From the NCBI GenBank assembly GCA_016195275.1, contig JACPZZ010000017.1, forward strand, positions 21,581 to 85,580: 64,000 bases of DNA, in the 5' to 3' direction. The stretch is from Candidatus Aenigmatarchaeota archaeon (GTDB lineage Archaea; Aenigmatarchaeota; Aenigmatarchaeia; JACPZZ01). Position numbers and translations under genes: made by a program. Numbering within the stretch: position 1 is the first letter of the stretch; each line of letters opens with the position of its first letter. Under the pieces are notes generated by a model. The model was not told where the DNA came from. It did not search any database and was given only the letters and a program-made list of their open reading frames with translations. Shown here piece after piece: positions 31,018-56,651 of the stretch.

Positions 31018-31027
31018 CGTTCACCTC

Positions 31028-31354: not shown

Positions 31355-31364
31355 CCTTCACCTC

Positions 31365-31598
31365 CTAGAATCCGTCGCATGACTTGTATCCGGACCTGAC
31401 GCAGAACACGCACGCCCTAGCCTTGACCATCTGCTCGCCGCAGCCAGGACAAGCCTCGCCATCGCCAGACGCAACGCCGACATCTACACGAGGTCCGCCA
31501 CCATCGCCACCCTCGGTAGGGAGACGAACGTTGCTGTTGCGGATGCCAATACTGGAAATCCTCGTCCCTTCCTTTTGAGCCTCCATAGGCGTCTCCAA
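31365..31598 (-). CDS. small zinc-ribbon protein
   Basis: 77 aa; CPGCGEQ...CVFC ribbon; same strand and spacing as the operon. Confidence 0.4.
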   Translation of the reverse strand: METPMEAQKEGTRISSIGIRNSNVRLPTEGGDGGGPRVDVGVASGDGEACPGCGEQMVKARACVFCVRSGYKSCDGF

Positions 31599-35723: not shown

Positions 35724-36083
35724 CTATGAAATCTCCTGCACGTTTATTCGAAATCTCCTCTCACCAGTTTCTCTACCCTGCCGGTCAATTGCTTCAAGGC
35801 GACCTAGTAAATACTCCGCCCTTTCAAAGTTTACCGGATAGACTGGCCTTCGATATCCTCTAGCATCATTCGGGTAATAGTCTCGCATCCTCATTTTTAC
35901 CACTGGTTCCCCGATCACGCCTAACTGTCTCAGGTACTTGATTCCCTCTTCGGTAACAGGCTCCCTCCGCATGTAATAAAGGTCTCTGGTTGGCCGCGAA
36001 GATAATCTTCGTGATTCGTTCACTACGTGACGTAATGCCTTGTTGATAGTCGTCAAATACATCTGCTTGAGTTCCCGCTTCAT
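35724..36083 (-). CDS. hypothetical protein
   Basis: 119-aa basic ORF. Confidence 0.4.
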   Translation of the reverse strand: MKRELKQMYLTTINKALRHVVNESRRLSSRPTRDLYYMRREPVTEEGIKYLRQLGVIGEPVVKMRMRDYYPNDARGYRRPVYPVNFERAEYLLGRLEAIDRQGRETGERRFRINVQEIS

Positions 36084-36340
36084 AATTTACTTCATTATGG
36101 GTGCCACCTTAAATAGATTGACTGGTTTGTTGGTGCCAATGTTTTCTACCTTATAACCTCTCAGTCGATAGCTTTCTGCCATGACTCACTTCAGCTTGTA
36201 TTATCCTCATGCATTTTCGCCTCCTTCGCCTTTTCGTAGGCTTCATGGATTTCACGTATCGTGTCCTCAAAAACTGAATCAAACCCCATGCGCAAGCTGC
36301 TCTCTGCGCTGTAACGACCTGTCGGAATTTTTTTGAGTAG

Positions 36341-36577
36341 CTAACATCGGCCTGAACAATTCTCAGAAGTGTGCACCCTGGCCCGGCCACAACACACAAA
36401 CTGCAAAATGCCGCAGTGCTCAACGAGCGTTGCGTTGTGTGCGGAGCTGAACACCAATCGCAGGCCCGCCGTCTCCTTGCAGAAACCGCACATCGGATGA
36501 CCGTCCTGAGTCCACTTGCACCTCGGCAGGACCTGGACCATCGCCTGCCCGTTGATTGTGACAACGCCGTCTCTCAT
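36341..36577 (-). CDS. small Cys-containing protein (cassette copy 1, gene B)
   Basis: About 78 aa from MRDGVVTINGQAMVQVLPRCKWTQDGHPMCGFC...; conserved in copy 2 with conservative substitutions; start overlaps the stop of gene A (ATGA). Confidence 0.45.
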   Translation of the reverse strand: MRDGVVTINGQAMVQVLPRCKWTQDGHPMCGFCKETAGLRLVFSSAHNATLVEHCGILQFVCCGRARVHTSENCSGRC

Positions 36578-36939
36578 ACGGTGCGACCCCCGCACGTCAC
36601 GCACGTCATCGGAATCGCTTCCCCCGTACCTTTGATCTTCGGACACCTGCAATGTTCGCAGTCGCACAGTTCGTCGGCCGGGCGACGTCTCCCCGACCAA
36701 ACGAGCGCCCGCTTTGGTATCTCCCAAATCCGACCGCCGAGAGACGTTAGCTCAGACTCGCGGAAGTATCCCAACTCTTCATCGAAGCCTTGGTCCAACC
36801 CGAAGTACAAGACATCTGCGTCTGTCTTTTCTGTGACCTCAGTCGCGAACCAAAACCAGCCAATGTAGCTTTCGAAGCCCTTGATAACCTCCTTGCCGTC
36901 GATGTACAACTTCCCGTCCCTTTCCTCAAACTTTGCCAT
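36574..36939 (-). CDS. conserved hypothetical protein with C-terminal zinc ribbon (cassette copy 1, gene A)
   Basis: About 121 aa from MAKFEERDGKLYIDGKEVIKGFESYIGWFWFATE...ADELCDCEHCRCPKIKGTGEAIPMTCVTCGG; start trimmed from the ORF-track start (37083) to the Met conserved in copy 2. Confidence 0.55.
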   Translation of the reverse strand: MAKFEERDGKLYIDGKEVIKGFESYIGWFWFATEVTEKTDADVLYFGLDQGFDEELGYFRESELTSLGGRIWEIPKRALVWSGRRRPADELCDCEHCRCPKIKGTGEAIPMTCVTCGGRTV

Positions 36940-37112
36940 GTTGATCCCCCCCCCCTTGGCGATGCTCTTTGGCACCACCCTACTTGCTGGCTTACCAGTT
37001 CCCCCATGCTGAGGGGGATAGGGGGTGCAGGGATCGCACCGTATCCACACTGCGACCCGCACACCCACGACAAAGCGGGGCAAGCCAGAATAACCCTAGC
37101 GGGAGGACCGAG

Positions 37113-37183
37113 CGCGGGTTATCTGGATTGAGCACTACACTGGAGGGAAAGCCGAGCACGGAAAACCGAAGGTTGTCGGTGCC
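37113..37183 (+). repeat. island repeat element copy b (core 37142-37183)
   Basis: gcgggttatctggattgagcac...ggagggaaagccgagcacggaaaaccgaaggttgtcggtgcc. Confidence 0.6.
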
Positions 37184-37235
37184 AATTACAACTCTATCTT
37201 TGCAGTTTTGCCTGGCCAGATACGGTTTTTAGGGC

Positions 37236-38288
37236 TTGTCGGGTGTAACTGCCAGATACGGGAATTCAAAAAGCGCAAAGATGGAGTACAAAACTGTAAG
37301 GGACAACAGGACACATAACCCAATAGGTCGGTTAGGGTATAATGTTAGTAACAAGTTGAACTTTGAGATTGTGTTGTCGGGAGTGGCAGCCGCCGTAAGG
37401 CGAATGGAGATCAGGTTGACGATGCCTGCTCAAACGGAGGGGGTCAATTTGATACATCATCTGACCCTTACTGGTCTACTTGTTCTATTTTTTCTCATTG
37501 CATCGGCTTGTGCTCAGCCTACGCCCACCACAGCACCTACACTTACTCCGGCACCTGTACTGACCCCACCCCCTATCCCTAGCCCAACTTCTCCACCCAT
37601 GCCTGGTCCGACACTAACAGGACCTACATTTACCCCATCACCTACCCTGACCCCTACTCCCACTTTGACACCTACAGTTACATCAGCCCCTACTCCCACC
37701 CCTACTACCAAGGCACCAGGTGTAGTCTCTGGTTCATCAGGGGAAGTTTCGGCGGACGGCAAGGTACTAGCAGCCTTGATAGGTGCTCTCGGAGCGGGAG
37801 GAGCTGCTTTGATCGTAGGCGCAGTCAACTTTTTCATGAACAGGAGAGCACTACGCCAGCAAGCTGAGGCGCTGAAGAAAACACTGGATCACCAAGAAAA
37901 GGTTCTGGCTCTACAGGAGAAGGCCTTGGAAAGAACATCGAACCAAGAAACGGCTGCATTAAGGGCTGAATATACGAAATTACATACTGAAAATGTCCTG
38001 AAGGTATATCAGGATGTTTCTAAGCAATTAGCTCTTTTCCGTGCTTATTTGGAGGGAAAGGAGCCTGCTTCAAGTCTACTAGGCGTAATTGAGACCTTTT
38101 ATTGGGCTTATCCCTTCTTAGGTCAAGATACCATTAACGAATTTGACACGAAAATCGTCCCACTAGCCTTAGACCCAGAGAAGCTTCGAGACCTTGACTA
38201 TCCTCGACTTCAGTTACTCCTAGCCGATGTCCTTGAAAAGGTGCGGAGCGATGTGGATGCTATCAAGAGAGGAGAACCGAAAATATGA
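37236..38288 (+). CDS. Pro/Thr-rich membrane-anchored protein with C-terminal coiled coil
   Basis: 350 aa; TM (LTGLLVLFFLIASACA), about 100-aa PT-rich linker (PTPTTAPTLTPAPVLTPPP...), second TM, helical C-terminal domain; the true start may be the internal MEYKTV. Confidence 0.55.
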   Translation: MSGVTARYGNSKSAKMEYKTVRDNRTHNPIGRLGYNVSNKLNFEIVLSGVAAAVRRMEIRLTMPAQTEGVNLIHHLTLTGLLVLFFLIASACAQPTPTTAPTLTPAPVLTPPPIPSPTSPPMPGPTLTGPTFTPSPTLTPTPTLTPTVTSAPTPTPTTKAPGVVSGSSGEVSADGKVLAALIGALGAGGAALIVGAVNFFMNRRALRQQAEALKKTLDHQEKVLALQEKALERTSNQETAALRAEYTKLHTENVLKVYQDVSKQLALFRAYLEGKEPASSLLGVIETFYWAYPFLGQDTINEFDTKIVPLALDPEKLRDLDYPRLQLLLADVLEKVRSDVDAIKRGEPKI

Positions 38289-38767
38289 CTGAACTAAAAG
38301 TCACGCTGGAACATGAAGGAGATCAATCACTAGCTACAGTCGCCCGCCCTTTAGTATCCCTATCTCAGTTGTATTATTTCCTTTGGCTGGTCGACCACGG
38401 TAAGCGTGAAAACTGGGATGCTTGGCTTCAAGGATTTCGTGAATGGATTGGGGAAGATGGCTTAAAACTTAAAACATTCCACTACGGTTCTATTTGTGAG
38501 GCTACTCTTGAAGTCAAGAAAGAGAATGAGTCCACGGCCCGCAGACTGGCTGAGGCAGCCATGAAGGTGGTAGAACGCCTGCGGGACATCGGACAAAAAC
38601 CAGAGCAACAACGTCGAGAACAAATCAGCGACCAAGTTGTTATTCAACTCCTTCCTGAAATTGATAAAGTCCCAAATGATCTACGTTCACCAGTGATTGG
38701 CCAATTGCGGTTTACCTTATTCGGACTAAGCAGAATAAAACTGATGGGCTTTGAAATAGGTGAATAA
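38285..38767 (+). CDS. hypothetical protein
   Basis: 160 aa; start overlaps the upstream stop (ATGA), suggesting co-translation. Confidence 0.5.
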   Translation: MTELKVTLEHEGDQSLATVARPLVSLSQLYYFLWLVDHGKRENWDAWLQGFREWIGEDGLKLKTFHYGSICEATLEVKKENESTARRLAEAAMKVVERLRDIGQKPEQQRREQISDQVVIQLLPEIDKVPNDLRSPVIGQLRFTLFGLSRIKLMGFEIGE

Positions 38768-38853
38768 ATGACGAATCTGTAAAGGCAACCTAGAGGCGAT
38801 TGCGGTTACGTGATAGTTGATGATATGCAAGACATTTCCCCACCCTTTGAGAC

Positions 38854-39198
38854 TCAATAATCCTCTGGAAACATAATCGTCCTGCCGCCCGTCTCGTTGT
38901 CCATCATCCAGAAGCGGTTTCCTTTGTACGTGAACTCGACTAAGTCCTTGTCCTTAGCCCGGTTGTAAGCGGCTCTGGCAGAATCTTCCAGCTCTCTGTA
39001 CGGTTTGGAAATGTCAGCGTCATTTTCCAGGCCGCCCAAGAAAGCGTACACGGCACTGGTCACGCGATTCACGTCGTGCCGCGAAAGTTTAGCCACGTCA
39101 TGCAGCACGCCGTCGGCCAGAGCCATTTCGTCGGTGTAGCTGAAGATCACATTGCCGAATAACTCAGCCTCATAATCCTTTCGTTCCTTGTCGTTCAA
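38854..39198 (-). CDS. hypothetical protein
   Basis: 114-aa acidic ORF. Confidence 0.4.
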   Translation of the reverse strand: MNDKERKDYEAELFGNVIFSYTDEMALADGVLHDVAKLSRHDVNRVTSAVYAFLGGLENDADISKPYRELEDSARAAYNRAKDKDLVEFTYKGNRFWMMDNETGGRTIMFPEDY

Positions 39199-39264
39199 TT
39201 CTAGTCACTACCAAGAATCGGTCCCTCGCCCAGATAAAGATTCCTTCAACGCTCTGCCTTTCAT

Positions 39265-40769
39265 GCCTGTAAACACGACTTGGAGGGTTATTGCCTGGGA
39301 AGGTTCAAAGGGTGAAAATGATAGGCATCAGTGAAGGAGAGGGAAGGTGTGACTCATGCTCCCCATTGTGGAAGTCCCAGAGTCCATCCGACGTGGTATG
39401 GAGCGCTACCGCTCCATTTTCTGCCGCCAGGAAGGCTTCGACCATGTCTGCCGCTATGTCACAGGTTTGATAGTCTTACCCAATAAAACCCTCCAGGGCA
39501 TCCATGACCTCCAGGTCTGGGAGGACCACACCCCCAGTAGAAGGTCTATGCATGAAGCAGTTTTCGAGGCCCACTGGGATGACGATCAATTGATGAAGGA
39601 TCATCGCAAGGCAGTGAGCCAGGACCACCATGGGCTGGGACGTGAGGTGATCGGTCTGGATTGGACTTTCTCTCATCATGAGCGGGGGCCAAAAATATAC
39701 GCCACCACTCGGGCCTGGGACTACGTGAATAACCTCTATAGCAGGTTCCAGACGGTAGTCACCGCTTCCATTGCCAACCGCCAGCTCATCGATGGCCTTG
39801 AGGTGAAGGTCCAAGAGCCTAAGCTCTGGAAGAAGGAGCTAGAGGCCCTCAAAGTCACTGCCCAGGAGGACTACAACCAGTTGGAAGATGCACGCAGCCG
39901 GCTACTGGAACTCCTGAGGTATCGGCTACATAGGAAACAGTATCGTAAGAGGACAGAGATAGCAGTGGAGATAGCAAAACAGATAGAGGAAGAAGGCCAC
40001 TTCCCCCAGGCCAGCTATGCCTTTGATAGTGCAGTGCTGACCCCGGAGTTGGCACGGCTGATAGAAGGAGCTGGCAAGCACTGGGTGAGTGAACTTCAGA
40101 GCAACCGTCAGATCCAATGGCGTGGCGAGTGGAAGCGGGTGGATGAGGTGGATAAGGAGCTGAGGGAGCAGCACCCTGAGAGCTTCAGGGAGGTAAGGGC
40201 TCGCTGCCGTAATGGAGAGGAAAAGACCCACTTTGCCTTTACCAAGGTAGTGCGCCTGAGAAGGTATGGACGCAAGCGGTTGGTGATAGTCCATGAAAAG
40301 GAAGATTTGAAAGACGAGCCTCGCTTCTTGCTCACCGATGCCCTTCATTGGGAAAGCAAGCGGGTGATAGAGAACTGGAACTTTCGCTGGCCTATAGAGG
40401 TCTTTCATGAGTTCAGCAAGCAGGTGACGGGGCTGGAGTCGGCTCAGGTACGCAAGGAGGAAGCGGTTAAACGCCACTTCCGATTGAGTTGTGTAGCGCA
40501 GTCGCTGGTACAGCGGGCACCTGTGAGTGGGACGACATCGGAAAGATTTGCCTTTGTGACAAACCAGCAAGGGAGCATAGGTCAGCGGTGCAGGAGCATC
40601 ATGCGAGAAGTGTTGAAGGGAGTGTTACAGCTTGCGAAGAACCTGTTTGAGCAAGGGCGCTCATGTGATGAGGTGCTGGAGGTGCTGATGCCAGCCTGAT
40701 GAGTAGTAGCACAGATATTCTCAAAATTAATCAACCCTCCAAGTCGTGTGTAAACAGGGAGCTAGAGAT
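39265..40769. mobile_element. insertion sequence (about 1.5 kb) with about 24-bp imperfect terminal inverted repeats, IS4/IS701-like
   Basis: IRL cctgtaaacacgacttggagggtt (39265-39288) versus the reverse complement of IRR aaccctccaagtcgtgtgtaaacaggg (40743-40769): 16/16 core identity plus flanking matches; single transposase ORF inside. Confidence 0.65.
39356..40699 (+). CDS. DDE transposase (IS4/IS701-like)
   Basis: 447 aa; layout and segments (VIGLDWTFSHHERGPKIYATT..., ...LTDALHWESKRVIENWNFRWPIEVFHEFSKQ) reminiscent of IS701/IS4-family transposases; bounded by IRs. Confidence 0.6.
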   Translation: MLPIVEVPESIRRGMERYRSIFCRQEGFDHVCRYVTGLIVLPNKTLQGIHDLQVWEDHTPSRRSMHEAVFEAHWDDDQLMKDHRKAVSQDHHGLGREVIGLDWTFSHHERGPKIYATTRAWDYVNNLYSRFQTVVTASIANRQLIDGLEVKVQEPKLWKKELEALKVTAQEDYNQLEDARSRLLELLRYRLHRKQYRKRTEIAVEIAKQIEEEGHFPQASYAFDSAVLTPELARLIEGAGKHWVSELQSNRQIQWRGEWKRVDEVDKELREQHPESFREVRARCRNGEEKTHFAFTKVVRLRRYGRKRLVIVHEKEDLKDEPRFLLTDALHWESKRVIENWNFRWPIEVFHEFSKQVTGLESAQVRKEEAVKRHFRLSCVAQSLVQRAPVSGTTSERFAFVTNQQGSIGQRCRSIMREVLKGVLQLAKNLFEQGRSCDEVLEVLMPA

Positions 40770-40983
40770 TCACTTCCCGCCAGCTTTCAAATACCAGGGT
40801 GGAGCCCATCGTCCGCACGACCTACAAGTACCGCTATCTCGGCCAGGAAGACCAGTCCCAGTGGGAGCCAGACCCACAGGTAAACCAGGATTGAAAGCCT
40901 GGCGTTTGTTCTGAGAGGTAACCTGGATTTCAACTGCTCAGCAACTACCAACCTTTATATACTTTGCCATATAATATAAAAAG

Positions 40984-41664
40984 GTGATTGTCATGAAATT
41001 GAGGCAGTTTTACGAGGATTTGCAGGACAGATGGGCAGGCAGCCTGGTCAAAGTTCAGTATTTGGACCATCCTCACGCCAAGGAATACATGTACCGGTTA
41101 GCTAGAGAAGGCTTGGTGGAAAATGTTGCATGGGGCTGGTACTGGGTGCCAGCTCAGTTGGAAGATGTTTGGGACTTTCTCGCCAACGATAAAAACTTCA
41201 AAGTGATTGCTGGCCAGACTGCTGCCTCTCTCTGGAATGGAGACTTTGTTCACCGCGAGCTCTATCTGGTAAAGGTTAAGGATCGCTCTTACGGCCAAGC
41301 ATTAAAGGCCTTTGGTGAAGGAAAGGGCTGGGACCTTGAGGTAGAAGTAGCCCGCAAACCTCCAGCCTACACCAAGATTGACGGCCTGCTGGTCGAGACC
41401 ATCGACGAGACTATCCTGGACTGCCTGAGCAGGTGGGCTTTTCTGGATGCCTTTGCCATTCTGCATGAACATCCGGAGATAGATTTCAGAACAGTGGCAA
41501 AACAGGGCTACTGGCAACGCTTGCCCGGCACACACATCAGGCTGAAACCGGTGCTGGAATACGGGTATTCCAGACTCACAGGACGCAAGAGTAGACCGCT
41601 GGCAGACCCATTCGTGGCGAGGGAAGTGGAAGAAGCGGTGGAAAAGGTGATGGAGATTGGCTAG
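40984..41664 (+). CDS. AbiEi-like antitoxin / transcriptional regulator (type IV TA, abortive infection)
   Basis: 226 aa; N-terminal wHTH-like region; immediately upstream of, and overlapping (8 nt), an AbiEii-type nucleotidyltransferase. Confidence 0.55.
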   Translation: MIVMKLRQFYEDLQDRWAGSLVKVQYLDHPHAKEYMYRLAREGLVENVAWGWYWVPAQLEDVWDFLANDKNFKVIAGQTAASLWNGDFVHRELYLVKVKDRSYGQALKAFGEGKGWDLEVEVARKPPAYTKIDGLLVETIDETILDCLSRWAFLDAFAILHEHPEIDFRTVAKQGYWQRLPGTHIRLKPVLEYGYSRLTGRKSRPLADPFVAREVEEAVEKVMEIG

Positions 41665-42394
41665 ACAGCTCAGGCTTGCCCATGCCCGGGAAGAGGTGAT
41701 TGCCGACCTTCTTAACAGGTTGGCCGAAAAGTCGCATGGCTTCAGTTCACCTAAACTGGTCCTCATCGGCGGATATGCCTTGAGGGCGTTTGTGCCCTTG
41801 TCCAGGTCCACCCGGGATTGCGACTTTGCCCTGCGGAAAGGACAGGATTGGCAGATTGACAGAATCCGCACATGGTTCTCAGACCTTGAGGTGCTCACTC
41901 TAGAGAAAAGGGATGACCATGGCTTTATGCGCTGCTTGAAGCTGATCAGAATCAATGACAGTACAGCCAGGGTCTCATTGGACTTCATGGAAGACAAAGT
42001 GGTGGGCAGAGATATGGAAGAGGTCATCAACTTGGATGCGAGGTTTGAAGGGGATGCCCAGAATGTGCGTATTACCATTGCCAACCAGCCAATTGATGTG
42101 GTGGTGCCATGCTACCGCGACTATTTCATACTGAAGGCCGTATCTGCCAGAAGAAGCGATATCCGTGATATAGCTGCGCTGGTGTGGAAGCTGGGCGTGC
42201 CTGAAGTGAAGCCAAGGTTAGAGGAGATACTGCCTTATCCCGATGTTTTTTACCGGAAGGTCAGGGAGGTCATCATTCCCGACATCGAGGATACCAGATT
42301 TATCCACTCGTGGCGCGGCACGTTTGTCACGACTGCGTTCTCTGAACAAGATAAACAAAATGTGATTGATGAGCTGAGGGAATTGTGCGGGTGA
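41657..42394 (+). CDS. AbiEii/AbiGii-family nucleotidyltransferase toxin (DUF1814-like)
   Basis: 245 aa; VLIGGYALRAF...TRDCDF polymerase-beta-type NTase motif (GG...DxD) in the position typical of AbiEii. Confidence 0.65.
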   Translation: MARQLRLAHAREEVIADLLNRLAEKSHGFSSPKLVLIGGYALRAFVPLSRSTRDCDFALRKGQDWQIDRIRTWFSDLEVLTLEKRDDHGFMRCLKLIRINDSTARVSLDFMEDKVVGRDMEEVINLDARFEGDAQNVRITIANQPIDVVVPCYRDYFILKAVSARRSDIRDIAALVWKLGVPEVKPRLEEILPYPDVFYRKVREVIIPDIEDTRFIHSWRGTFVTTAFSEQDKQNVIDELRELCG

Positions 42395-42418
42395 CTTTGA
42401 GGGCAGTGTGGTAAGCTG

Positions 42419-42739
42419 ATGGAAAATGAAGTGTTAATAGAATTGAAAGTGCCGCTTGATATGGTGGACGACCTGCGGAAGCTGGAACAGGTAGAGCACA
42501 TAGACAGGTCTACGGCAGTACGAAAGCTGCTTTACTCAGGTCTTCGTGAATGGAAACTCGAACATGCAGCTACGCTTTATAGGGATAACAGGGTGACCCT
42601 TGCGCGGGCAGCCGAAGAGGCAGGCGTCCCGGTGAGGGAGATGATGGAGTATTTCAGGCAGAAGAAAGTGCCCATGCAATATGACATGGACGATTTCGAG
42701 AAGGACCTGAAAGGGATTTACGAGCGACTCGGAAAATGA
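42419..42739 (+). CDS. small HTH protein, UPF0175-like putative antitoxin
   Basis: 106 aa; helical, C-terminal HTH-like TLARAAEEAGVPVREMMEYFRQ; weak assignment. Confidence 0.35.
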   Translation: MENEVLIELKVPLDMVDDLRKLEQVEHIDRSTAVRKLLYSGLREWKLEHAATLYRDNRVTLARAAEEAGVPVREMMEYFRQKKVPMQYDMDDFEKDLKGIYERLGK

Positions 42740-42794
42740 ACAGCCTCAGGTCAGCGGAGTGAATATCAACCTGCCATGCTCTGGTTTCACTGTT

Positions 42795-43643
42795 TCAATG
42801 CCCTAGCTGAACCTCCTCATCTGCAACGGACACCCATTCAAACCACGAGGAAACTCCAAGCTCCTCTGCCCACCGGTTGACAGTCTCTATGTCCTGCTGC
42901 TGGCCGCCATCAGGCGACGACCAGATTGACCTCGCCATCCGCTCCCCGCGTCGATAGTAGGGAGTCCTGACGTACGGCTGCCTCATTCTCCTATCATCCA
43001 GCAGCCAACCGAGATACGAAGCAAAGGCTGAGTTCATGGTCACGGAAGCGTCGTACACCTTCTTCGGAGTGAACGCCTGAACTGCTGGCTTCAACCCCTC
43101 GGCATTCTGCTCTACTTGCCTCCTGAGAGCGCGTCTCTGCGCTGGCCGCAAACCTTCGTAGCTCTCATACATCCATCGTTCGATACGCATGTCCACAGGC
43201 ATGTTGTTGACCTGGCGAACTACGCCATCATGCCACATCTTCAGGACATGGCCCAAAGCCTCTTCGGGCATACCTCTATCGGCCAGCCGGAAAAGGTGGT
43301 CCTTCAGCTCGTAGCCAACCGAACGACGCTGCTCGTTGGTGACGGTGGGAAGTCTGCGCATATCCTCCGGCCCTCGGAAAAAGCGCAGAATGTGACCGGC
43401 TTCATGAGCGAGGTAATAGGGAAGGTGCTCCTCAAGATGCGGCGAATATCGGACGACGTGCAACGGATCGCCGGGCCCTGCCAGCCTCACAGTTGCGTTG
43501 GCGTACTCTTCAATGCGGGCATCTGGCACCAACAAGAAGCCTTTCCCTGTGAGGTCCTCCACTTCCTGCCAGATGCGATTGACATCATCCGGCAAGCGTA
43601 GCAGGTAGTTCTGTGCCCTACAGATCACCTTGTAATCTGTCAA
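42795..43643 (-). CDS. HExxH-motif protein, putative zinc metallopeptidase
   Basis: 282 aa; YYLAHEAGHILRF (HExxH); no other recognised domain. Confidence 0.45.
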   Translation of the reverse strand: MTDYKVICRAQNYLLRLPDDVNRIWQEVEDLTGKGFLLVPDARIEEYANATVRLAGPGDPLHVVRYSPHLEEHLPYYLAHEAGHILRFFRGPEDMRRLPTVTNEQRRSVGYELKDHLFRLADRGMPEEALGHVLKMWHDGVVRQVNNMPVDMRIERWMYESYEGLRPAQRRALRRQVEQNAEGLKPAVQAFTPKKVYDASVTMNSAFASYLGWLLDDRRMRQPYVRTPYYRRGERMARSIWSSPDGGQQQDIETVNRWAEELGVSSWFEWVSVADEEVQLGH

Positions 43644-43899
43644 AGGCGTGAGGGGCTTTGGCTAAGATTTCATCGCGAGAAAAAGGAGTGACCGGGAACA
43701 TCTCAAAAGGAGTGGGGTCAAAGCCTCGCAGCCCTGCGTCCACGGCGTCTCTAAGGCTCTTGAATTCCCCTGAGTCGTAATGACAGTATCGCTTGCGGTC
43801 TGTGCCAACGTAAAGGCGGTACGATCCTGGGGCTGCTTCTAAAAAGAGCAGGTGGTATTTGCCCATTCTCGTTTCTATGTATGGAAGCGCCCGAGACAC
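43618..43899 (-). CDS. hypothetical protein
   Basis: 93-aa ORF overlapping the downstream gene by 26 nt. Confidence 0.35.
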   Translation of the reverse strand: MSRALPYIETRMGKYHLLFLEAAPGSYRLYVGTDRKRYCHYDSGEFKSLRDAVDAGLRGFDPTPFEMFPVTPFSRDEILAKAPHAFDRLQGDL

Positions 43900-43968
43900 A
43901 CAATGATTTGCCCAGCAGGGACTTATAAAGTCTCGGACGAAGGCTTGCCAGCCTTGCGGGTGAGATTC

Positions 43969-45015
43969 TCACCCTTCCTTCTTAACTCTCAACAGCCTGA
44001 TGTTACCCCTCATGTCCGCGCGCTCGCTCTCGATCAGTCCCACCGAGATTAAAGTTGCCACATACGCGGAAAATGTGCGCGAGGCGACCGGCCTCTTGCC
44101 AATATCCGAGCAATGCCTCAAGTAACCTTGCCACAACGTGTTGGAAAGCATACCTTCAGATCCTGAACCTTTGATTAGCTCGAATATGGCCCTGTGGTGC
44201 TCGGTCAGGCTCTGGAGCAGGTAACGCTGCTCCAGTTCTCTGGCAGACGTGAATCCTGACTCAACGTGTTGCGCCAGGATGACCCGGCTTCTGTCGGATT
44301 CAGCCAGCTCCGCAGCGTTGTTCAAGGTTTGAATCGCTACTCTGGCATCGCCGTCGGATAGCGATGCGATCCTGCCCAGCGTTTCCTGATCCCAGGAACC
44401 GGAAACAAGCGCTTCCCTTGCCCTCTGCTCAACCATGCCTACAAGCTCTTCGGCACTGTACGGCTCGAAAGCGATCTGCCTTAACGCAACCCTTGATAAA
44501 ACCCTCGGGTCCACATTCATCAAAAAGTAGCGCGAATTACAGATGGCGACCAACCCTACGCTGCCGATCCTTGCAAGGTTGTAGAGAATGGCATTTCTCT
44601 CTTTCGGGGCGGGTTTGTCTATCTCGTCCAGGACGATGACGAAAGGTTTGTTGCCGATGCTCCTTTCAAAGCGTTCCAGCTTCAAAGCCGCCTCGGTTTT
44701 GTCGGCGAACATGATGCGAAGCTCTTTGACAATCTCATCAGCCACCAGGTACAGGGAGTTGTGCTTCCACCAGTTTATGTAAACAGATTGGATAGGAGAC
44801 TCTCGCCTCAGGCGTTGCAGGGCCCACCGGGCCACAGCGGTCTTGCCTGTTCCAGGATTACCGTACAGCCAGATATTAACAGGCTTCCGGTGTTTCAATG
44901 CCGGAGCGAGGCGTAGATTAAGCTGATGGATTTGCTCCTCCCTGCCTGACAAGGACGCCGGCATATATTCTTCTGAAAGGACCGCAGGCTCCCTGATGAT
45001 GCGAATCTCTTCCAT
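43969..45015 (-). CDS. Orc1/Cdc6-family AAA+ replication initiator with C-terminal winged helix
   Basis: 348 aa; Walker A LYGNPGTGKTAVA, Walker B VVLDEIDK, sensor ICNSRYF, C-terminal wH; archaeal plasmid/virus-type initiator. Confidence 0.85.
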   Translation of the reverse strand: MEEIRIIREPAVLSEEYMPASLSGREEQIHQLNLRLAPALKHRKPVNIWLYGNPGTGKTAVARWALQRLRRESPIQSVYINWWKHNSLYLVADEIVKELRIMFADKTEAALKLERFERSIGNKPFVIVLDEIDKPAPKERNAILYNLARIGSVGLVAICNSRYFLMNVDPRVLSRVALRQIAFEPYSAEELVGMVEQRAREALVSGSWDQETLGRIASLSDGDARVAIQTLNNAAELAESDRSRVILAQHVESGFTSARELEQRYLLQSLTEHHRAIFELIKGSGSEGMLSNTLWQGYLRHCSDIGKRPVASRTFSAYVATLISVGLIESERADMRGNIRLLRVKKEG

Positions 45016-45083
45016 ACTTATCTTTAGTAGTCCAAACTTTAATCGACGGGCGGGAGCGATCTGCGGGTTATGCGCTTAACCGC

Positions 45084-45302
45084 TCACTTGAAATTCTCAA
45101 CGCGCCACCTCACGCGGTTCATCTTCATTTCCCGATGCGCACTCACCAGGTACTCCGGTATGTGGTACTGGGCCAAATAATCACGCCTGACCCGGTAAAG
45201 CTCGTTAGCTACGTGTTCGGCCTGCTGCGCCAACTCCGCAAACCTGTACTTCAACTGCTCCACCGATGACTGCACAGCTTCCACGCCAGAGAGCTTGTTC
45301 AA
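45084..45302 (-). CDS. hypothetical protein
   Basis: 72-aa helical ORF; start overlaps the upstream stop. Confidence 0.35.
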   Translation of the reverse strand: MNKLSGVEAVQSSVEQLKYRFAELAQQAEHVANELYRVRRDYLAQYHIPEYLVSAHREMKMNRVRWRVENFK

Positions 45303-45988
45303 GAACGTCGCATTGAGCTCAACCCTGCATCCCTGGCTCGCTGCATCTCGTCGTTGCGCACGAACGCATCGAGAAACTTGCTGCTGTCTGTCGCCTCCAT
45401 CAACAGCTTGTTCAGAGTCAGATGCACCAGATAGGGCTGCTGAGTTGAAGTGGGTAGATTGGTAAACCTTTGAGGGTTCATGAAACTCGCCACCCGGACC
45501 GCCAGGCTTCGGACAGATCTGGTCAACGGCGGCAGTCTTTTCTCAAGCTCTCGGATCTCCTGCGTGATTTCTGGATGCTGCTGTTCAAACTCCACAAATC
45601 TCCCAGGCTCGAAAATGGTAGAGTAGCCGTCCAACAAGGGCTTGAGTATTCCAAGAAACGGTGCCGGATAGTAGAACCGATCCTGGCTGATCTGGAATAG
45701 CTCCAGTTGCTCTTTCTGGATCTCCCTGGCCGCGAATTCTTCATCGCTGACTGCCCAGGCGTGGCTTCTGGTTTTCACAGCATGTTCAAGATCCTTCAGC
45801 CGGTCCGATAGAGGGTCGATAACAGTGACAATCTCCTCCACCACACGGTCTCGCGATGCCAGTGTTCGGTTTTGGTTTATCAGGGTGCGGTTTTGAAGCG
45901 CCAGCCAAAGTGTGATAGTGGCCAGCAGCGTTGTGGAAATGGCGCTGAGCCAGGGGGCGTTGATCTGCAAAAACTCTAAAACCCCCAT
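45299..45988 (-). CDS. membrane-anchored hypothetical protein
   Basis: 229 aa; N-terminal TM (WLSAISTTLLATITLWLAL) followed by a helical domain. Confidence 0.45.
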   Translation of the reverse strand: MGVLEFLQINAPWLSAISTTLLATITLWLALQNRTLINQNRTLASRDRVVEEIVTVIDPLSDRLKDLEHAVKTRSHAWAVSDEEFAAREIQKEQLELFQISQDRFYYPAPFLGILKPLLDGYSTIFEPGRFVEFEQQHPEITQEIRELEKRLPPLTRSVRSLAVRVASFMNPQRFTNLPTSTQQPYLVHLTLNKLLMEATDSSKFLDAFVRNDEMQRARDAGLSSMRRS

Positions 45989-46253
45989 AGTCGGTCACAC
46001 GCCAATCCTTCATACCAACGCGAAGGGTCCTACTTATTTTCGGCGGCTGGCGAGATAAGGTTGTGCCTGTGGTCAGGCGATAAAAAAGCAGGTGGTATCC
46101 CAGGATAATCGCAGCCACCCTGCCAGACATAGGAACCACTCCTGAGGTGGTCGGTAGAGGCTCTCCTCCCAAATAGGGGGTTCATAATGCTTGGTTTATA
46201 TTTAGCTTATGTGTGATTATTCTAGGACACTACCAAAAAGCATTGACGATAAA

Positions 46254-46281
46254 GAAATGGAAAACCGAAGGTTGTTGGTGC
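46254..46281 (+). repeat. island repeat element copy c (3' half only)
   Basis: aaatggaaaaccgaaggttgttggtgcg matches the GGAAAACCGAAGGTTGTCGGTGCC half of copy b. Confidence 0.5.
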
Positions 46282-46453
46282 GTGTTCTTATTTCGGTCAC
46301 AAGCCGGGGGCAGATCAAGTAGCAAGATCCAGGATGGACTGCCGCATGACATAGGAGGTTGGCTTTGTTGAAACCCAAGAATGGAAATCGCGCTGAGTCC
46401 CGTTTGAACTATCCCCTCAGCGATCAGGGCCGCTTACCTGCTGATTCGAGCAG

Positions 46454-46861
46454 CTAGCCATCATACGCCATACCAAACCAGAGGTCGAATGAATTGGCAC
46501 TTGGAAGCTTCATCCCCAGAGTCATCAGGAAGTCATTGAGGAAGTCTCTGCCCAGTACCACGACCCTCCGGTCTCTGGGTTGGGGATCCTCCATGACACG
46601 TATAGGAAAATAGTGCGAGAAGCCAGAGATTTTAATGTCTGCATCGTATATAGAAGAACCAGATAAAACTCCGACGGGTGCCCACGGCCGAAGTTGGGCA
46701 AACACAAACGCCGGGATCCTCGAATAGTCTGCACTGGTATCGATCCTGGCCACCAAACCCCCAGCCGCCATTTTGGACCGCGACGAGCGAATCGCCTCTA
46801 CATTAACGATTAACTCTGGCGGAAGTGCAGACAACGCATATGAGTATAAAAACCCTGGCAT
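46454..46861 (-). CDS. retropepsin-like (clan AA) aspartic protease domain protein
   Basis: 135 aa; ARIDTSADYSRIP resembles the D(T/S)GA active-site loop of retropepsin-like proteases; 3-nt gap to the upstream gene. Confidence 0.45.
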   Translation of the reverse strand: MPGFLYSYALSALPPELIVNVEAIRSSRSKMAAGGLVARIDTSADYSRIPAFVFAQLRPWAPVGVLSGSSIYDADIKISGFSHYFPIRVMEDPQPRDRRVVVLGRDFLNDFLMTLGMKLPSANSFDLWFGMAYDG

Positions 46862-46863
46862 TG

Positions 46864-48534
46864 CTATTCGTCCTCATGCCAGAACTCCAGATCCGGAATA
46901 TGCGAAAGCTCTGCTTCCGTCAGTAGTACTGTAAATAGCGGTCGTCCCCGATATTCTGGAGGTAATTTTCGGGTGAGTTGACCCGATGTAGGCGCCACGG
47001 CTATAACCGACTCTCCACTGATGGCCACATATTGTCTAGGGTAAGTCTTCAATAACCGATCTTTGTCCCTGAGATAAAATCGCCATCCGGTGAGAAAATC
47101 CATCCCACCTTTGTCCTCGGCCAACGAGCGGAGTGCTTCGCGCGGCAACTCTGGAACTCCGTATTCTGTGACTAGCTCTCTATATAATTTCCACCATTCT
47201 GCGGCTCCCACTATGCCACCCTCTTGATCTATATTATGGGATCGCGGACTGATAAATCTATCTGGTATCTCTTTCCCAAACATCGCCTCGTGCTGGTAGG
47301 GAAACGCCATGTATAACCCAGAATCGGGTAATTTGCACGTTGCAAGGAACTGGGTTACGTTAGGCAACACTTCCTGCACCAGTGATGAGACGAGGCCCAG
47401 GTACTCCGGTGATGAGCCTAACCCCTTCCCCTCTACTAGCAGATAAATTACTTTGAGAGTGTTCAACCCGAAGCGTTCTGAGCACACACTCGGCAGTGAG
47501 TCAACTGTGGAGAAATTAGTTACGGCCCCGTCAGAGAGACATGAGTGTAAGAATCTCAGTGGTCCTGCTGAGTCGAGCCACGCGAGATCATCGCCATTTG
47601 GCTTAATTGCCTCCATGCTAAGTAGCGCACGCACTAGCTGAAGAGCATATCTAGTGTGTAACAAATCCGGGATCTGGTCGTCTTTACGGTTCCTCCTGAA
47701 TCCCCCGCTGTTCTTGTCCCAGCAGTATTGGAGTAATCTCGCCACCTTGGGACCCTTAGCCCGCAACTGCGCTAGCAGGTTCCGGTACGAAGGGTTATCT
47801 TTACCCAGCAACTCTCCCAAAATAATGCAGACTCTATACGCCTGTTCAGTCACGGATAGGCAAGGCTCCTCTGCGCCAGTGTCCCGGAACCCGAATGTCA
47901 CCGAATCTTCATAAGTGAAATCCTGGCGGAGCAATGTATCTGCTACGGTCTCTAATGGGAATTCGATATTAGGGAGCACACTAAAGTGCTCACGGGCTTG
48001 ATTGTATGTGCGGATGGCCGAGACACTAGAAAATATGCCGAAAACACCTGGGTTCCGCCACTCCGACAGACTATAAGCCTTCTCGGGTTCGATATATGCC
48101 TTCCGGACAAACTGCCCACACGCAGCCAGGATGGAATGAAAGTCTGAACTCACTATTTGAGGCCGCTGTGCAGAGTTTACGAACAGAAGGCGCAGACCAA
48201 GGTCAATTGCCTGTACAGAAGGGGTATCCCCCTCGTACATCCGAAAAACTTTTCGGTCGGGGTCTATGAATTCTCTGCTTATGCAGCCGGTGTTTTGGGG
48301 AACCGACGGTCCTTCTTCGATTGGCTGGTTGTAGAAGAACCTATCCTCACTTCTTGACCCTTGAAGGAGCTGTGCCAGTTCTTGGGCGTAGTTTTGGGTG
48401 GTTCTAGCGAAGTATAGAGCGTCCAGAGCGGGCGCTACCGCCCACACATAGTAAAGCTCAGCAATCTCCTTGGATGGGGCAGTTGCTCTCCAATACCGTA
48501 TGGTCTCATTGAGGAGTTCTTGATAGAAAGTCAC
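46864..48534 (-). CDS. large hypothetical protein with one prenyltransferase/squalene-oxidase-type repeat match (possible alpha/alpha-toroid domain; assignment weak)
   Basis: 556 aa; DKNSGGFRRNRKDDQIPDLLHTRYALQLVRALL fits the QxxDGGF...D...T..AL repeat of terpenoid cyclase/prenyltransferase barrels; otherwise unassigned. Confidence 0.45.
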   Translation of the reverse strand: MTFYQELLNETIRYWRATAPSKEIAELYYVWAVAPALDALYFARTTQNYAQELAQLLQGSRSEDRFFYNQPIEEGPSVPQNTGCISREFIDPDRKVFRMYEGDTPSVQAIDLGLRLLFVNSAQRPQIVSSDFHSILAACGQFVRKAYIEPEKAYSLSEWRNPGVFGIFSSVSAIRTYNQAREHFSVLPNIEFPLETVADTLLRQDFTYEDSVTFGFRDTGAEEPCLSVTEQAYRVCIILGELLGKDNPSYRNLLAQLRAKGPKVARLLQYCWDKNSGGFRRNRKDDQIPDLLHTRYALQLVRALLSMEAIKPNGDDLAWLDSAGPLRFLHSCLSDGAVTNFSTVDSLPSVCSERFGLNTLKVIYLLVEGKGLGSSPEYLGLVSSLVQEVLPNVTQFLATCKLPDSGLYMAFPYQHEAMFGKEIPDRFISPRSHNIDQEGGIVGAAEWWKLYRELVTEYGVPELPREALRSLAEDKGGMDFLTGWRFYLRDKDRLLKTYPRQYVAISGESVIAVAPTSGQLTRKLPPEYRGRPLFTVLLTEAELSHIPDLEFWHEDE

Positions 48535-49109
48535 GCGTTACACTCCGATGGCTTAGAGTCCTCCCTCGCCCACGCCGCGGTCTATGGACCGCCCTTTAGA
48601 GTAAAGACTAGGCGACCCACAGTCCGGTGAACGAACACAACCTTGAGACAGTAACGTTCGGTGTGGAAAACACCACCACCCTTAACTGATACGCTCAACT
48701 GTCTGCCTCCCGTTGTTCTTCCCAGAGTACCCTAATAAACGAGGGAGAAGCCCTTCTCATGCGGTACATTGCTCTCCCAAAACTATCGCGTCTGGTAGGT
48801 CACTATGGCAACTCACTAAAGTTGCTCCAACAGAAATATCTGGAGCGGATTGGCACTGTCACGATCCTGGCCTGACCGTCACCTCTGTAAAACACGCCAG
48901 GGCCGGAACCTTGCGTCGTGTGACACCTCAGCGCCAGCCCGCGTTCGCCCCCAAGCCCACTATTGTCGTCCAAGTACCCCACCTTAGTATAGTCGACCAG
49001 TATTTCCGTGTCAATACTTTGAATCTCCCCTAATGATACATTGGTGCAATTCTCACGGAACACCAGATGCAACCCCGAGGCAACAATAGTGTTCTAACCT
49101 GCTGGATCA

Positions 49110-50372
49110 TCAACTTGCAAATGCCACAGTGAACATGTCGGATTGGAAACTACGACTTCCAACCCACGCTCGAATGCACACTTTTTGCTCCCCTATGGCA
49201 AGTCTTTTCGGTATCTGGAAGTAAACCGTGTGAGTCTCAACGTCGCTTATCACATAAGTAGGCAAGGCCAATGTGTCCAGCCAGTTTCCCCTAATGAAGA
49301 CCTGTACCCTTTGCAGTTGCGATGGCTGCGATACCCTAAAGGTCACTACCACCGCCAAGTTTATGTCATGGGTGGTCTCACTAAGACCGCCAATGGCTGG
49401 GTTCCCGCCCGAAAGCAGCATATATCTTTGAACTTCGACCTCCAGAGAGCCTTGTTCCCGGTCCGCCAATTCTTCATTGGGCGGCCGAAGAATTTGTCGT
49501 GTTACCCTGCCTCCAGGCAACACTCTAACCTTGTCACCAGTGTCTTCCTGCATTCCATCGGGGAACTTACCTCGCAATGTTAGCTTCGTAAGAAACACCC
49601 GGACGAAAGTCGCTGCTACACCCGCCGCGTAGTGTCTCCATAGAGCCCTCTGTTCAGACGCGCCCAAGCCTGCTCCGTCAGACGTCAAACCGGGCACGTC
49701 AGAAATACCACGTATCATCAGGGCTCCGATCGACTGCTTTGACTGAGTAAGACGTATCGCTGAACCTACGCCAGTACCCTCCATCTCGATCGCGTCGGCT
49801 TCAGGAATCCCCTTCCTCAGATCCTGAACAAGGGGATAGTTAAGGTCGTCGACAGTTGCGTTGATGGAAACTACATATCCACTGTCTACTTTGGGAGTTC
49901 GCTTTTCTTCCGGCTTCGGCCAAGCTATCCCCACGTTATCCACCCATTCCGGACTCATTTTAGCTATGAGCTCCGCGTGTTCTAGCAGAGTTCTGTCAGG
50001 CCTCCAATCTTGGTCAGGCCTTCTCTTGAAGCTCCCGCCAATTATTTTCCCGACCACGCCATACACATTGCTGGCGATTATAACGTCCCCATGACGAAAT
50101 TTACCATCTGGAAAGCCTCCAGCGATACCGACGATGAGCACCCACCTGGGTTCAAACGTTGTGATAACCTGTTGCAATGACGACGCGGCGTTCTCCTGAT
50201 ATTTACCCACCTGCACACAGACTACCTGGAACTTCCCAATTTGGCCTCGCTTGGCGGGGAGGAGTTGATCTATAGGATCGAATGAATGGCCTAGTTGGCT
50301 AGCCATCGCAGCCCATTCCTCAGGCAAAGGGCACGCGAGCAAGAAGTCCACTGAGCTATGATCACTGCTCAT
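49110..50372 (-). CDS. PNP/MTAN-family (PNP_UDP_1) nucleosidase/phosphorylase domain fused to about 180-aa unknown C-terminal domain
   Basis: 420 aa; LIVGIAGGFPDG, AIEMEGTGVG, MIRGISDVPG, the three signature blocks of the MTA/SAH nucleosidase/purine nucleoside phosphorylase fold; C-terminal beta-rich domain without matches. Confidence 0.7.
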   Translation of the reverse strand: MSSDHSSVDFLLACPLPEEWAAMASQLGHSFDPIDQLLPAKRGQIGKFQVVCVQVGKYQENAASSLQQVITTFEPRWVLIVGIAGGFPDGKFRHGDVIIASNVYGVVGKIIGGSFKRRPDQDWRPDRTLLEHAELIAKMSPEWVDNVGIAWPKPEEKRTPKVDSGYVVSINATVDDLNYPLVQDLRKGIPEADAIEMEGTGVGSAIRLTQSKQSIGALMIRGISDVPGLTSDGAGLGASEQRALWRHYAAGVAATFVRVFLTKLTLRGKFPDGMQEDTGDKVRVLPGGRVTRQILRPPNEELADREQGSLEVEVQRYMLLSGGNPAIGGLSETTHDINLAVVVTFRVSQPSQLQRVQVFIRGNWLDTLALPTYVISDVETHTVYFQIPKRLAIGEQKVCIRAWVGSRSFQSDMFTVAFAS

Positions 50373-50701
50373 AGGGACACCTCCTAATGTTCGCTACGCT
50401 ACTGGTGGCCCAATCCTACATGTGGCCTGGCTCCGAGTCAAGAATCCTGGCCTGGAGTGCGTCTCACCATTCGATGACAAAATACCCAACTGGAGCGGCG
50501 TCAGTAGTTACCTCGTGCCCAACTGCATTCACCCTGATGGCGATCTCAGCGGCAAACCGAGAGCCCGATGCAGTTGTGGCTGACCGCACGTGGGGCTAGT
50601 TAGAAAGTCCCCTTCGTCTTCGGATCAGCCATATCTTCCTCTGCCGCATGAAATAGTCGATTGCGGCAATTATACTCTCTCTGGCCTGCGGCTTCATCAC
50701 C

Positions 50702-50920
50702 TCAACCACTACAACCCCCTGCCTCTGCCCAGCCGCAACGCACAAACTGCACGATCCCGCAATGCTCCAACAGCGTCGCATCGTGCGCACTGCTGTAAAC
50801 GAGTCGTATTCCGGCGGCACCGCAGAAACCGCACCACACCCGACCGTCTCCGGTCCTCTTGCACCTCGGCAATACCTGAACCATCGCCCGGCCGTTGATC
50901 GTGACCACGCTGTCGCTCAT
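50702..50920 (-). CDS. small Cys-containing protein (cassette copy 2, gene B)
   Basis: About 72 aa from MSDSVVTINGRAMVQVLPRCKRTGDGRVWCGFC...; paralog of 36341-36577. Confidence 0.45.
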   Translation of the reverse strand: MSDSVVTINGRAMVQVLPRCKRTGDGRVWCGFCGAAGIRLVYSSAHDATLLEHCGIVQFVRCGWAEAGGCSG

Positions 50921-51282
50921 ACGTTGCAGCCACCGCAGGACACACACGTCGTCGGGATCGCTTCTCTTGTGCCGCTTATCTTGGGACACCTGCAATGTTC
51001 GCAGTCGCACAGTTCGTCGGCCGGGCGGCGTCTCCCCGACCATACGAGCGCCCGCTTTGGTATCTCCCAAATCCGACCGCCAAGAGACTTTAGCTCGGAC
51101 TCACGGAAGTAACCCCACTTCTCCTCGAAGCCCTGCACGAACCCGAAGTACAAGACATCGGCGTCTGTCTTCTCAGTGATCTCGGTTGCAAACCAGTACC
51201 AGCCGCCGAAGCTCTCGAAGCCTTTGATGACCTCCTCGCCGTCGATGTACAGCTTTCCATCTTTGTCCTCAAACTTTGGCAT
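50917..51282 (-). CDS. conserved hypothetical protein with C-terminal zinc ribbon (cassette copy 2, gene A)
   Basis: About 121 aa from MPKFEDKDGKLYIDGEEVIKGFESFGGWYWFATE...ADELCDCEHCRCPKISGTREAIPTTCVSCGG; about 80% identical to copy 1. Confidence 0.55.
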   Translation of the reverse strand: MPKFEDKDGKLYIDGEEVIKGFESFGGWYWFATEITEKTDADVLYFGFVQGFEEKWGYFRESELKSLGGRIWEIPKRALVWSGRRRPADELCDCEHCRCPKISGTREAIPTTCVSCGGCNV

Positions 51283-51461
51283 TCCTAACACGCTCCTTAG
51301 GCGACCTTCTTCGAGGCCACCTCTACTTGCGTGCTTACTTCTTGATCGTTGCCCCCTGCGGGGGCCAGGGGCGGAGTGGGGGTATTGGCCTTGATGGTGT
51401 GAACGCACAATATGCCTAGCTCGACGAAGGAGAGCGGCTTATGTGCGTTCAGCACGACGCA

Positions 51462-51498
51462 TGGAAAGGCGACATGGGAAACAGCAGGTTTCCGGTAG
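51462..51498 (+). repeat. island repeat element copy e
   Basis: ggaaaggcgacatgggaaacagcaggtttccggtagc, preceded by gcggcttatgtgcgttcagcac matching the extended 5' part of copies a and b. Confidence 0.5.
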
Positions 51499-51505
51499 CT
51501 CCAAG

Positions 51506-56582: not shown

Positions 56583-56630
56583 GCAATTACATGGGTCAGT
56601 CTGCTAATAAAAGATATACACTTGTTCAAA

Positions 56631-56651
56631 GCCTCAGGCGAGAATTGAACT
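56631..56651. repeat. attR: 21-bp direct repeat agcctcaggcgagaattgaac within the tRNA-Thr 3' end
   Basis: Identical to 15728-15748. Confidence 0.75.

Follow-up and report, generated by a model that had tools for sequence, protein, structure and literature searches.

A 64,000-nucleotide (nt) stretch of DNA from a Candidatus Aenigmatarchaeota archaeon (GenBank assembly GCA_016195275.1, contig JACPZZ010000017.1), hereafter the window, harbors two copies of a cassette of two small overlapping genes, A and B, both located inside one tRNA-integrated element of 40.9 kb and each preceded by a structured leader that displays strong covariation and is new to Rfam. As judged from related loci, the unit is a set of shuffled modules, comprising the leader, a DUF2958-like or alternative (D) head, a putative zinc-ribbon tail, the partner gene B and a further gene C, rather than a fixed two-gene pair. 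The role of the cassette is probably host interaction rather than that of a toxin-antitoxin (TA) system.

Both copies lie on the minus strand, copy 1 at 36341-36939 and copy 2 at 50702-51282. A preliminary description of this DNA, made from the sequence alone, had already reported a duplicated cassette of about 80% identity at these coordinates; the duplication and the positions were borne out, and the reading direction had to be corrected to the minus strand. In copy 1, gene A (A1, 36574-36939) encodes a protein of 121 amino acids (aa) identical to NCBI HY051_02880, and gene B (B1, 36341-36577) encodes a 78-aa protein predicted to be small and all-beta, with the invariant residues C20, C30, C33 and H47. 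In copy 2, gene A (A2, 50917-51282) encodes the 121-aa protein HY051_02950, and gene B (B2, 50702-50920) encodes a 72-aa protein, in line with the lengths of about 121 and 75 aa and the ribbon-type end of A given before. The two NCBI entries derive from a 123-kb contig of a metagenome-assembled genome labeled 'Candidatus Aenigmarchaeota archaeon'. The ATG start of B and the TGA stop of A are merged into ATGA in each copy, and a GGNGG motif is built in upstream of the B start; the overlap, from which translational coupling had been proposed, is kept in five other lineages (as GTGA in locus L006). A tblastn search of the window with A1 recovered copy 2 at an E value of 1.6e-67, far beyond chance, and the tblastn searches gave precisely two genes for each of A and B and one for each of C and D in the window. 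The single gene C (35724-36083, minus strand, 119 aa) lies 3' of B1, with no second copy in the window, and has a homolog after B in locus L013. A short open reading frame (ORF) of about 34 aa also follows B in each copy (36191-36295 and about 50600-50700, both on the minus strand), the two being not obviously homologous.

Between the two copies, 56 of 363 nt differ in gene A (84.6% nt and 83% aa identity) and 61 of 216 aligned nt in gene B (72% nt and 71% aa identity), which amounts to about 80% DNA identity for A and B combined. Third codon positions dominate the differences (positions 1/2/3: 9/10/37 in A and 19/12/30 in B), and the ratio of nonsynonymous to synonymous substitution rates (dN/dS, Nei-Gojobori) was 0.13 for A at a dS of 0.64 and 0.23 for B at a dS of 1.03, neither of them near 1. 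Given these ratios, both A and B are real coding genes under purifying selection, as had been proposed. Gene B is absent in any form from a collection of 15 billion proteins, and is therefore unannotated in its source genome.

The leader was located with an nhmmer profile built from six leaders. It spans 36943-37198 before copy 1 (E 2e-50) and 51284-51509 before copy 2 (E 3e-43), both on the minus strand, which agrees with the repeat element noted earlier upstream of each copy; the leader of copy 2 begins at the stop codon of a gene for an N6/N4 DNA methylase (51506-52852, minus strand). A third full leader (27342-27526, minus strand, E 5e-14) stands before gene D instead of gene A. The leader is about 230-260 nt long and contains, in order, an element H1 (ACCGRMAACC-NNN-GGTTTYCC), a GCTAAAC box, a long hairpin H2, a variable G/C hairpin, a hairpin H5, and a GGAGG-type Shine-Dalgarno site about 10 nt before the ATG. 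H1 lies at 37160-37180, 51476-51496 and 27498-27518 in the three leaders, and H2 was placed by the covariance model (CM) R1 at 37076-37137 (76 bits), 51396-51457 (79.6 bits) and 27426-27474 (51 bits). An H1-only repeat fragment with a weak fold occurs at 46259-46279 (minus strand), upstream of an ORF at 45299-45988; it has no H2, and the H2 covariance model found no match there.

Hairpin H2 carries the covariation. Across ten sequences it comprises 17 base pairs, nine of which show changes on both sides, with zero G-U pairs. The cells of H2 were paired in 99.4% of cases, compared with 26-45% in slid controls, and the covariation score of 0.447, against 0.161 in shuffles, was reached by none of 500 shuffles. 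The conserved half-sites of H2 lie 5 to about 20 nt apart and its apical part varies in length; the candidate reading of H2 as the operator of a protein dimer was judged unlikely, since a hairpin would allow such spacing and a dimer bound to duplex DNA would not. H2 is stable with DNA folding parameters (z -2.7 to -4.6), and H5 has G-U pairs on the gene-sense strand. The covariance model found three copies of H2 in the window, all on one strand, and the reverse strand scored far lower. Related loci contain one H2 copy each, always upstream of A, D, ribbon or B, with the exception of L024, and the leader is kept before A, ribbon, D and B cargoes in at least eight lineages. The dedicated structured upstream element of the preliminary description is substantiated by this covariation and by the conservation of the leader across related loci. 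Locus L024, a 26-kb metagenomic contig, has a solitary H2 at L024:5518-5586 (73 bits, covariance model), with no leader remainder or A, B or D cargo recognizable downstream and a MarR-like gene on the opposite strand.

Searches beyond these loci gave few further leaders. Apart from tRNAs, Rfam yielded no match in the window at its gathering scores, the leader giving chance-level matches with E values of 3 or more. A scan with the leader pattern returned six loci in metagenome contigs, two of them new, and no match in viral contigs; four bacterial matches in genome contigs were taken as chance, about nine being expected by a hand estimate.

Gene A encodes a head of residues 1-88, a DUF2958-like beta domain, and a Cys-rich tail of residues 90-121 (36577-36672 in A1). 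The earlier statement that neither protein matches a nameable family was wrong for A. A tblastn search with A found a Nostoc plasmid 'DUF2958 domain-containing protein' (E 2e-4) that itself scores 68.6 bits on the Pfam model of DUF2958 (PF11171), and hhalign aligned the A profile (alignment A2) with this protein at a probability of 97% (E 1.2e-10). The motif FG.VQG.(E/D)EE.GYFS..EL is common to the A head and this bona fide member. By these three scores, the A head is a divergent DUF2958 domain and the remote homology is real despite a sub-threshold Pfam score; only two of 24 A relatives match PF11171 at E <= 1, and A2 has no match to this hidden Markov model (HMM). The head was modeled confidently by AlphaFold2 (AF2) as a small beta domain, with a predicted local distance difference test score (pLDDT) above 90. 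The predicted fold matched no solved structure, and in structure comparison it resembled an uncultured-virus protein, BFVD A0A516LHZ0 (E 5e-9, template modeling score 0.90). Sequence searches of the PDB with the ribbon and with profiles of A and B returned nothing at E below 0.1.

Relatives of A are scarce, with only 34 among 5.8 billion clusters. Most of these (29 of 34) are about 95 aa long and lack the ribbon, the majority ending just past an SGRR motif, and the C-terminal Cys-rich tail is found in only five A relatives, both window copies counted. The A proteins are like the DUF2958 proteins of bacterial plasmids, integrative and conjugative elements and phages in being small (about 95 aa), borne by mobile elements (in the bacterial examples next to relaxase or mob genes) and marked by the shared motif. 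They differ from the bacterial proteins in belonging to archaeal (DPANN) elements and viruses and in being fused to a zinc ribbon and coupled to B, whereas the one fusion seen in bacteria is to a RadC-like JAB domain. A MobF relaxase gene is found within a few kb of the Nostoc gene, and the DUF2958 of a planctomycete plasmid, the one fused to the JAB domain, lies two genes from MobC/relaxase genes. Locus L010 (Logan SRR22808002, 40 kb) encodes a 94-aa A homolog in a long same-strand run of genes for 40-100 aa, beside large Laminin_G-type proteins, on a virus-like contig from which the leader is absent. Since L010 looks viral and carries no leader, the DUF2958-like head seems to circulate in viruses independently of the leader.

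The tail of A follows the pattern C-x-C-x2-C-x-C, 14 residues, C-x2-C (CDCEHCRC...CVTCGG in A1), that is, two Cys knuckles of the CxxC type split by a short spacer, as the sequence definition of a zinc ribbon has it. Its residues C15, C20, C34 and C37 (numbering of alignment A9) are invariant in eight of eight sequences, and a search with a 42-aa ribbon profile gave a 56-aa protein of L013 as the sole match. In gene B, C20, C30-x2-C33 and H47 are invariant in nine lineages, position 54 being His or Cys, and homologs down to 33-36% identity keep an intact ORF together with the Cys/His residues. Among 1.84 billion representative proteins, searched exhaustively with an HMM of B, four are relatives of B (P0035, P0037, P0039 and P0040); a fifth match, P0038, was rejected as a spurious hit to an ankyrin-repeat protein. 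B represents a very rare CCCH family, and both B and the ribbon are predicted to bind zinc. Sequence and fold matches of the ribbon and B to S27e, bL32, Elf1 and Rpb9 were non-significant (Foldseek E > 1 for Elf1 and Rpb9). Beyond the sub-threshold DUF2958 match of A, no family for A, B, C or D was found in Pfam, PHROGs, PADLOC or NCBIfam. The cassette proteins resemble the short Cys-rich proteins (zinc ribbons and zinc fingers) that archaeal viruses and plasmids encode in numbers; unlike those, the ribbon motif CDCEHCxCPK...GTGE...CxxCGG and the B motif LPRC...CGxC...SxxH match no curated family.

The arrangement of these parts varies among related loci, which were surveyed on the contigs of B relatives and of long A homologs. 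L004/L005 repeat the order of the window, with the leader, an A-ribbon gene, the ATGA overlap and B, and L006 has the same order with GTGA. In L001, the leader is followed by a free-standing 33-aa ribbon mini-ORF (MAELCDCEHYGCPKLTGTNEANALVCVSCGGEHL), ATGA and B, with no DUF2958 head. In L013/L022, the leader precedes the 56-aa protein, composed of the first 21 residues of A and the ribbon with the DUF2958 core deleted, and then ATGA, B and a 124-aa gene, which in L013 is homologous to gene C of the window (29% identity, BLASTP E 2e-10). In L026 (L026:627-1365), the leader precedes a D homolog with the same C-terminal ribbon, followed by ATGA and a 10-codon remnant of B. The D gene of the window (26834-27319, minus strand, 161 aa), an alternative cargo of the leader with no family match, is 51% identical to this homolog (BLASTP E 1e-48). 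L015 has a ribbon with fewer Cys residues, a 12-nt gap and then B; L007 has an A-ribbon gene; L016 has the leader directly before a B-like gene; and L008 has the leader, a short A lacking the ribbon and then unrelated genes, its D homolog directly following the ATPase gene with no leader in front. The stop/start overlap of a ribbon-encoding ORF with B occurs in both window copies as well as in L001, L004/L005, L006 and L013. By these arrangements, the ribbon is a portable tail on two unrelated heads, the DUF2958-like A and D, and is usually coupled to B. The proposal that the cassette is a module rather than junk holds, the module being carried by a mobile element; the fixed two-gene pair does not, the parts being shuffled and C standing as a third gene in copy 1.

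The placement of both copies in one 40.9-kb element follows from 22-nt direct repeats, a tRNA gene and an adjacent tyrosine integrase gene. The left attachment (att) repeat (15737-15758, plus strand) matches the 3' end of the tRNA gene at 56630-56732 (minus strand) exactly over 22 nt, the right att repeat (56629-56650, plus strand) lies inside that gene, and the tyrosine integrase gene (55383-56582, minus strand) adjoins the right repeat. The tRNA gene, which Rfam finds and ARAGORN misses, is 103 nt long, and its extra length was read as an intron. The G+C content is 50-58% in the core versus about 45% in the flanks. A tRNA-Gly(GCC) gene at 15879-15953 (plus strand), some 120 nt inward of the left att repeat, is apparently either carried by the element or the mark of a second, older integration site.

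The backbone of the element includes a HerA/AAA_10/VirB4-like ATPase with weak model matches (27740-29899), preceded by genes for four Cys-rich small proteins of 77, 169, 121 and 125 aa (29878-31598, minus strand), the last two of which are paralogues and all of which are kept in L008 and L013. Of the small backbone genes, the one for a 114-aa protein with no family match (38854-39198, minus strand) is the most highly conserved, at 60-63% identity in L008 and L013; each of the three elements has it upstream of the cassette. The window, L013 and L008 have in common the ATPase (69-72% identity), the Cys-rich small proteins and the 114-aa protein; a comparison of L008 with L013 showed the D homolog in L008 only. 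The element family appears, from its predicted proteins, unusually rich in zinc-type small proteins. Since the cassette of leader and A precedes the ATPase module by 2-3 kb in each of these three elements, copy 1 occupies the position typical of the backbone, and copy 2 (behind the methylase gene) is an extra one. Defence-like cargo comprises a STAND-TPR/BTAD protein (18851-22057, minus strand), a NACHT/Avs2-like NTPase (32409-35675, plus strand) inserted between copy 1 and the ATPase module, and an AbiEii nucleotidyltransferase (41657-42394, plus strand). To this cargo also belong the N6/N4 methylase gene, directly upstream of copy 2, and a gene for a PNP/PN-superfamily effector (49110-50372, minus strand), directly downstream. 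A serine recombinase and a DDE transposase are also present.

Two other classes of element were considered for this stretch and rejected. Inovirus-like proviruses are on record for Aenigmarchaeota (Roux et al. 2019, PMC6813254). A provirus of this type would combine a pI/Zot-type morphogenesis ATPase with a compact genome of short genes; the present element measures 40.9 kb and its ATPase has no Zot match at E <= 0.01. An integron, with hairpin attC recombination sites 3' of promoterless cassettes that are densely arrayed beside an IntI integrase, was dismissed, as the hairpin lies 5' of the genes in a leader with a Shine-Dalgarno site and distances of 9.7 and 14.3 kb separate the copies; the sole tyrosine integrase, at the tRNA att end, likewise bears against it.

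The two cassettes do not result from a recent tandem duplication. No relative is nearer to A1 than A2, or to A2 than A1 (83%), yet B2 has higher identity with the metagenomic B of L004 (80%) than with B1 (71%). Because of this affinity and the dS of 0.6-1.0 (0.64 for A), a recent origin was rejected, and the copies are anciently diverged paralogues or xenologues, perhaps united by recombination between related elements. The element also encodes two Cdc6/Orc1 paralogues (43969-45015, minus strand; 53719-54714, plus strand) that share 47% identity across their C-terminal 213 aa; the N-terminal Walker A region seems to be missing from the second. These two copies would fit the same history and, together with the two cassettes, suggest that the element is a composite of two related elements.

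The interpretation tentatively favored here, with a little less than even confidence, is that the cassette is an accessory operon for host interaction, of the establishment type, in DPANN integrative elements, with the ribbon tail docking onto B. The leader of about 250 nt, with its 17-bp hairpin and Shine-Dalgarno site, would drive expression of the cassette, and the stop/start overlap would ensure production of B in 1:1 coupling with A. The ribbon tail would then dock onto B as an adaptor, so that different heads, DUF2958-like or D, are brought to this common partner, and the complex may target the host or a nucleic acid while the element becomes established or is maintained. A role in establishment or host interaction is suggested by the context of DUF2958 on bacterial plasmids and by the distribution of the family in viruses and mobile elements, and both this role and the tail-B complex are inferred. 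The persistence of the ribbon-B pair without the head in L001 and with the head deleted in L013 speaks for this interpretation. From its context, the cassette may have an anti-defence role.

Several observations weigh against this interpretation. The establishment context is drawn from just two bacterial plasmids, and the match of A1 to PF11171 (17.1 bits, E 0.007) falls under the gathering cut-off of 21 bits. The ribbon tail was modeled at a pLDDT from below 50 to 62 and gene B, as an all-beta protein, at a mean of 60, both of low confidence, so the AF2 predictions lend no structural support to the ribbon and B folds or to their complex. L007 and L026 have a ribbon but no B, and L016 has a B-like gene but no ribbon; on these grounds the ribbon-B pairing is frequent but not obligatory. 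The lineage sample is small and most contigs are of 1-3 kb. The literature yielded no functional study of DUF2958 or PF11171, and no homolog of known function was found for the cassette proteins.

A serious rival, judged unlikely, is an autoregulatory nucleic-acid-binding role, in which the ribbon, B or both, as a pair of transcription factors, bind H2 in their own leader and control the leader-driven genes as an immunity or maintenance switch. Small zinc-ribbon proteins with weak matches to ribosomal and RNA-polymerase-associated S27e, bL32, Elf1 and Rpb9 would suit such a role, as would the conserved inverted repeat upstream of every cassette, and three leaders in one element could form a single regulon. 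The exclusively Watson-Crick pairing of H2, with no G-U, is as expected of an element that acts at the DNA level. On the other side, the leader of L008 precedes an A without ribbon or B, neither gene being seen in 20 kb of that element; the variable half-site spacing of H2 speaks for a hairpin and against dimer binding to duplex DNA; and the matches to known nucleic-acid binders are all non-significant (E > 0.1).

The TA-like role suggested in the preliminary description appears improbable. As a type II system for addiction or abortive infection, A and B would be a toxin and an antitoxin autoregulated through the upstream palindrome, and two small co-directional genes with a 4-nt overlap and an upstream inverted repeat, present in more than one copy on a mobile element beside other defence- or TA-like cargo (AbiEii, STAND NTPases and the PNP effector), have the outward form of one. 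No toxin or antitoxin domain was found in A or B with Pfam, NCBIfam, PADLOC or PHROGs, so that positive evidence is wanting, and every part is also found without its partner. Most A homologs (29 of 34) lack the ribbon, and the two whose neighbors were read (L008 and L010) have no B. Since a ribbon without B and a B without a ribbon both exist, neither part behaves as a toxin that needs its partner, in a sample that is small and in which some copies may be decaying. Unlike type II TA pairs, the cassette components are shuffled as domains, with the ribbon on A, on D or free, and each occurs alone. The known type II toxins are, to our knowledge, unlike Cys-rich zinc-type proteins such as A and B.

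A further conjecture, held at a very low probability, takes H2 for an archaeal, single-stranded-DNA counterpart of the bacterial Frpo/ssi promoters or entry signals and the leader-driven A and D heads, ribbon, B and C for 'leading-region' establishment or anti-defence genes of a conjugation-like DPANN element, DUF2958 being an ancient establishment factor shared by bacterial and archaeal mobile elements. It is prompted by the Watson-Crick-only covariation, the one-strand orientation and the VirB4/HerA-like ATPase. The Frpo/ssi elements are single-strand promoters, long hairpins on the transferred strand before early genes with a stem that imitates a duplex promoter, reportedly treated by Masai and Arai in 1997; archaeal promoters are built on the TATA box and the B recognition element (BRE), not on -35/-10 boxes. 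Frpo elements are hairpin elements of about 250-300 nt directly upstream of establishment and anti-defence genes in the leading region of conjugative plasmids (Samuel et al. 2024, PMC11541004). The likeness is one of architecture, sequence similarity to Frpo not being expected, and consists in repeated hairpin elements on one strand, directly upstream of small accessory genes, in the stable folding of H2 as single-stranded DNA, and in a HerA/VirB4-like ATPase in the element. The present case differs in that no relaxase or origin of transfer was identified in the element, and H2 may just as well belong to an RNA 5' untranslated region.

The proposal that B is no gene at all, only a chance ORF within a conserved regulatory or 3' untranslated stretch behind a real A, accords with its lack of GenBank annotation, its absence from the large protein collection and its low AF2 confidence, and is effectively refuted by the dN/dS of 0.23 with an excess of third-position changes at a dS of about 1, by the conserved start overlap, by the ORF and Cys/His residues kept in nine lineages down to 33-36% identity, and by gene callers that predicted B on other contigs (P0035-P0037, P0039 and P0040).

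The mobile elements of DPANN archaea are almost uncharacterized, and a recurring, testable module has now been defined in one family of them, at present a well-documented orphan module and not a solved mechanism. Its new parts are a structured leader outside Rfam, a portable ribbon on two unrelated heads and the unannotated partner family B, and the divergent head links DUF2958, a domain that adjoins relaxase genes on plasmids of bacteria, with the elements and viruses of archaea. The Frpo-like reading of H2, if true, would imply transfer of single-stranded DNA between, or into, DPANN cells. Should the interaction of the tail with B and the role of the hairpin prove true, the module would offer a first handle on early or accessory gene expression in these elements and a functional lead for DUF2958.

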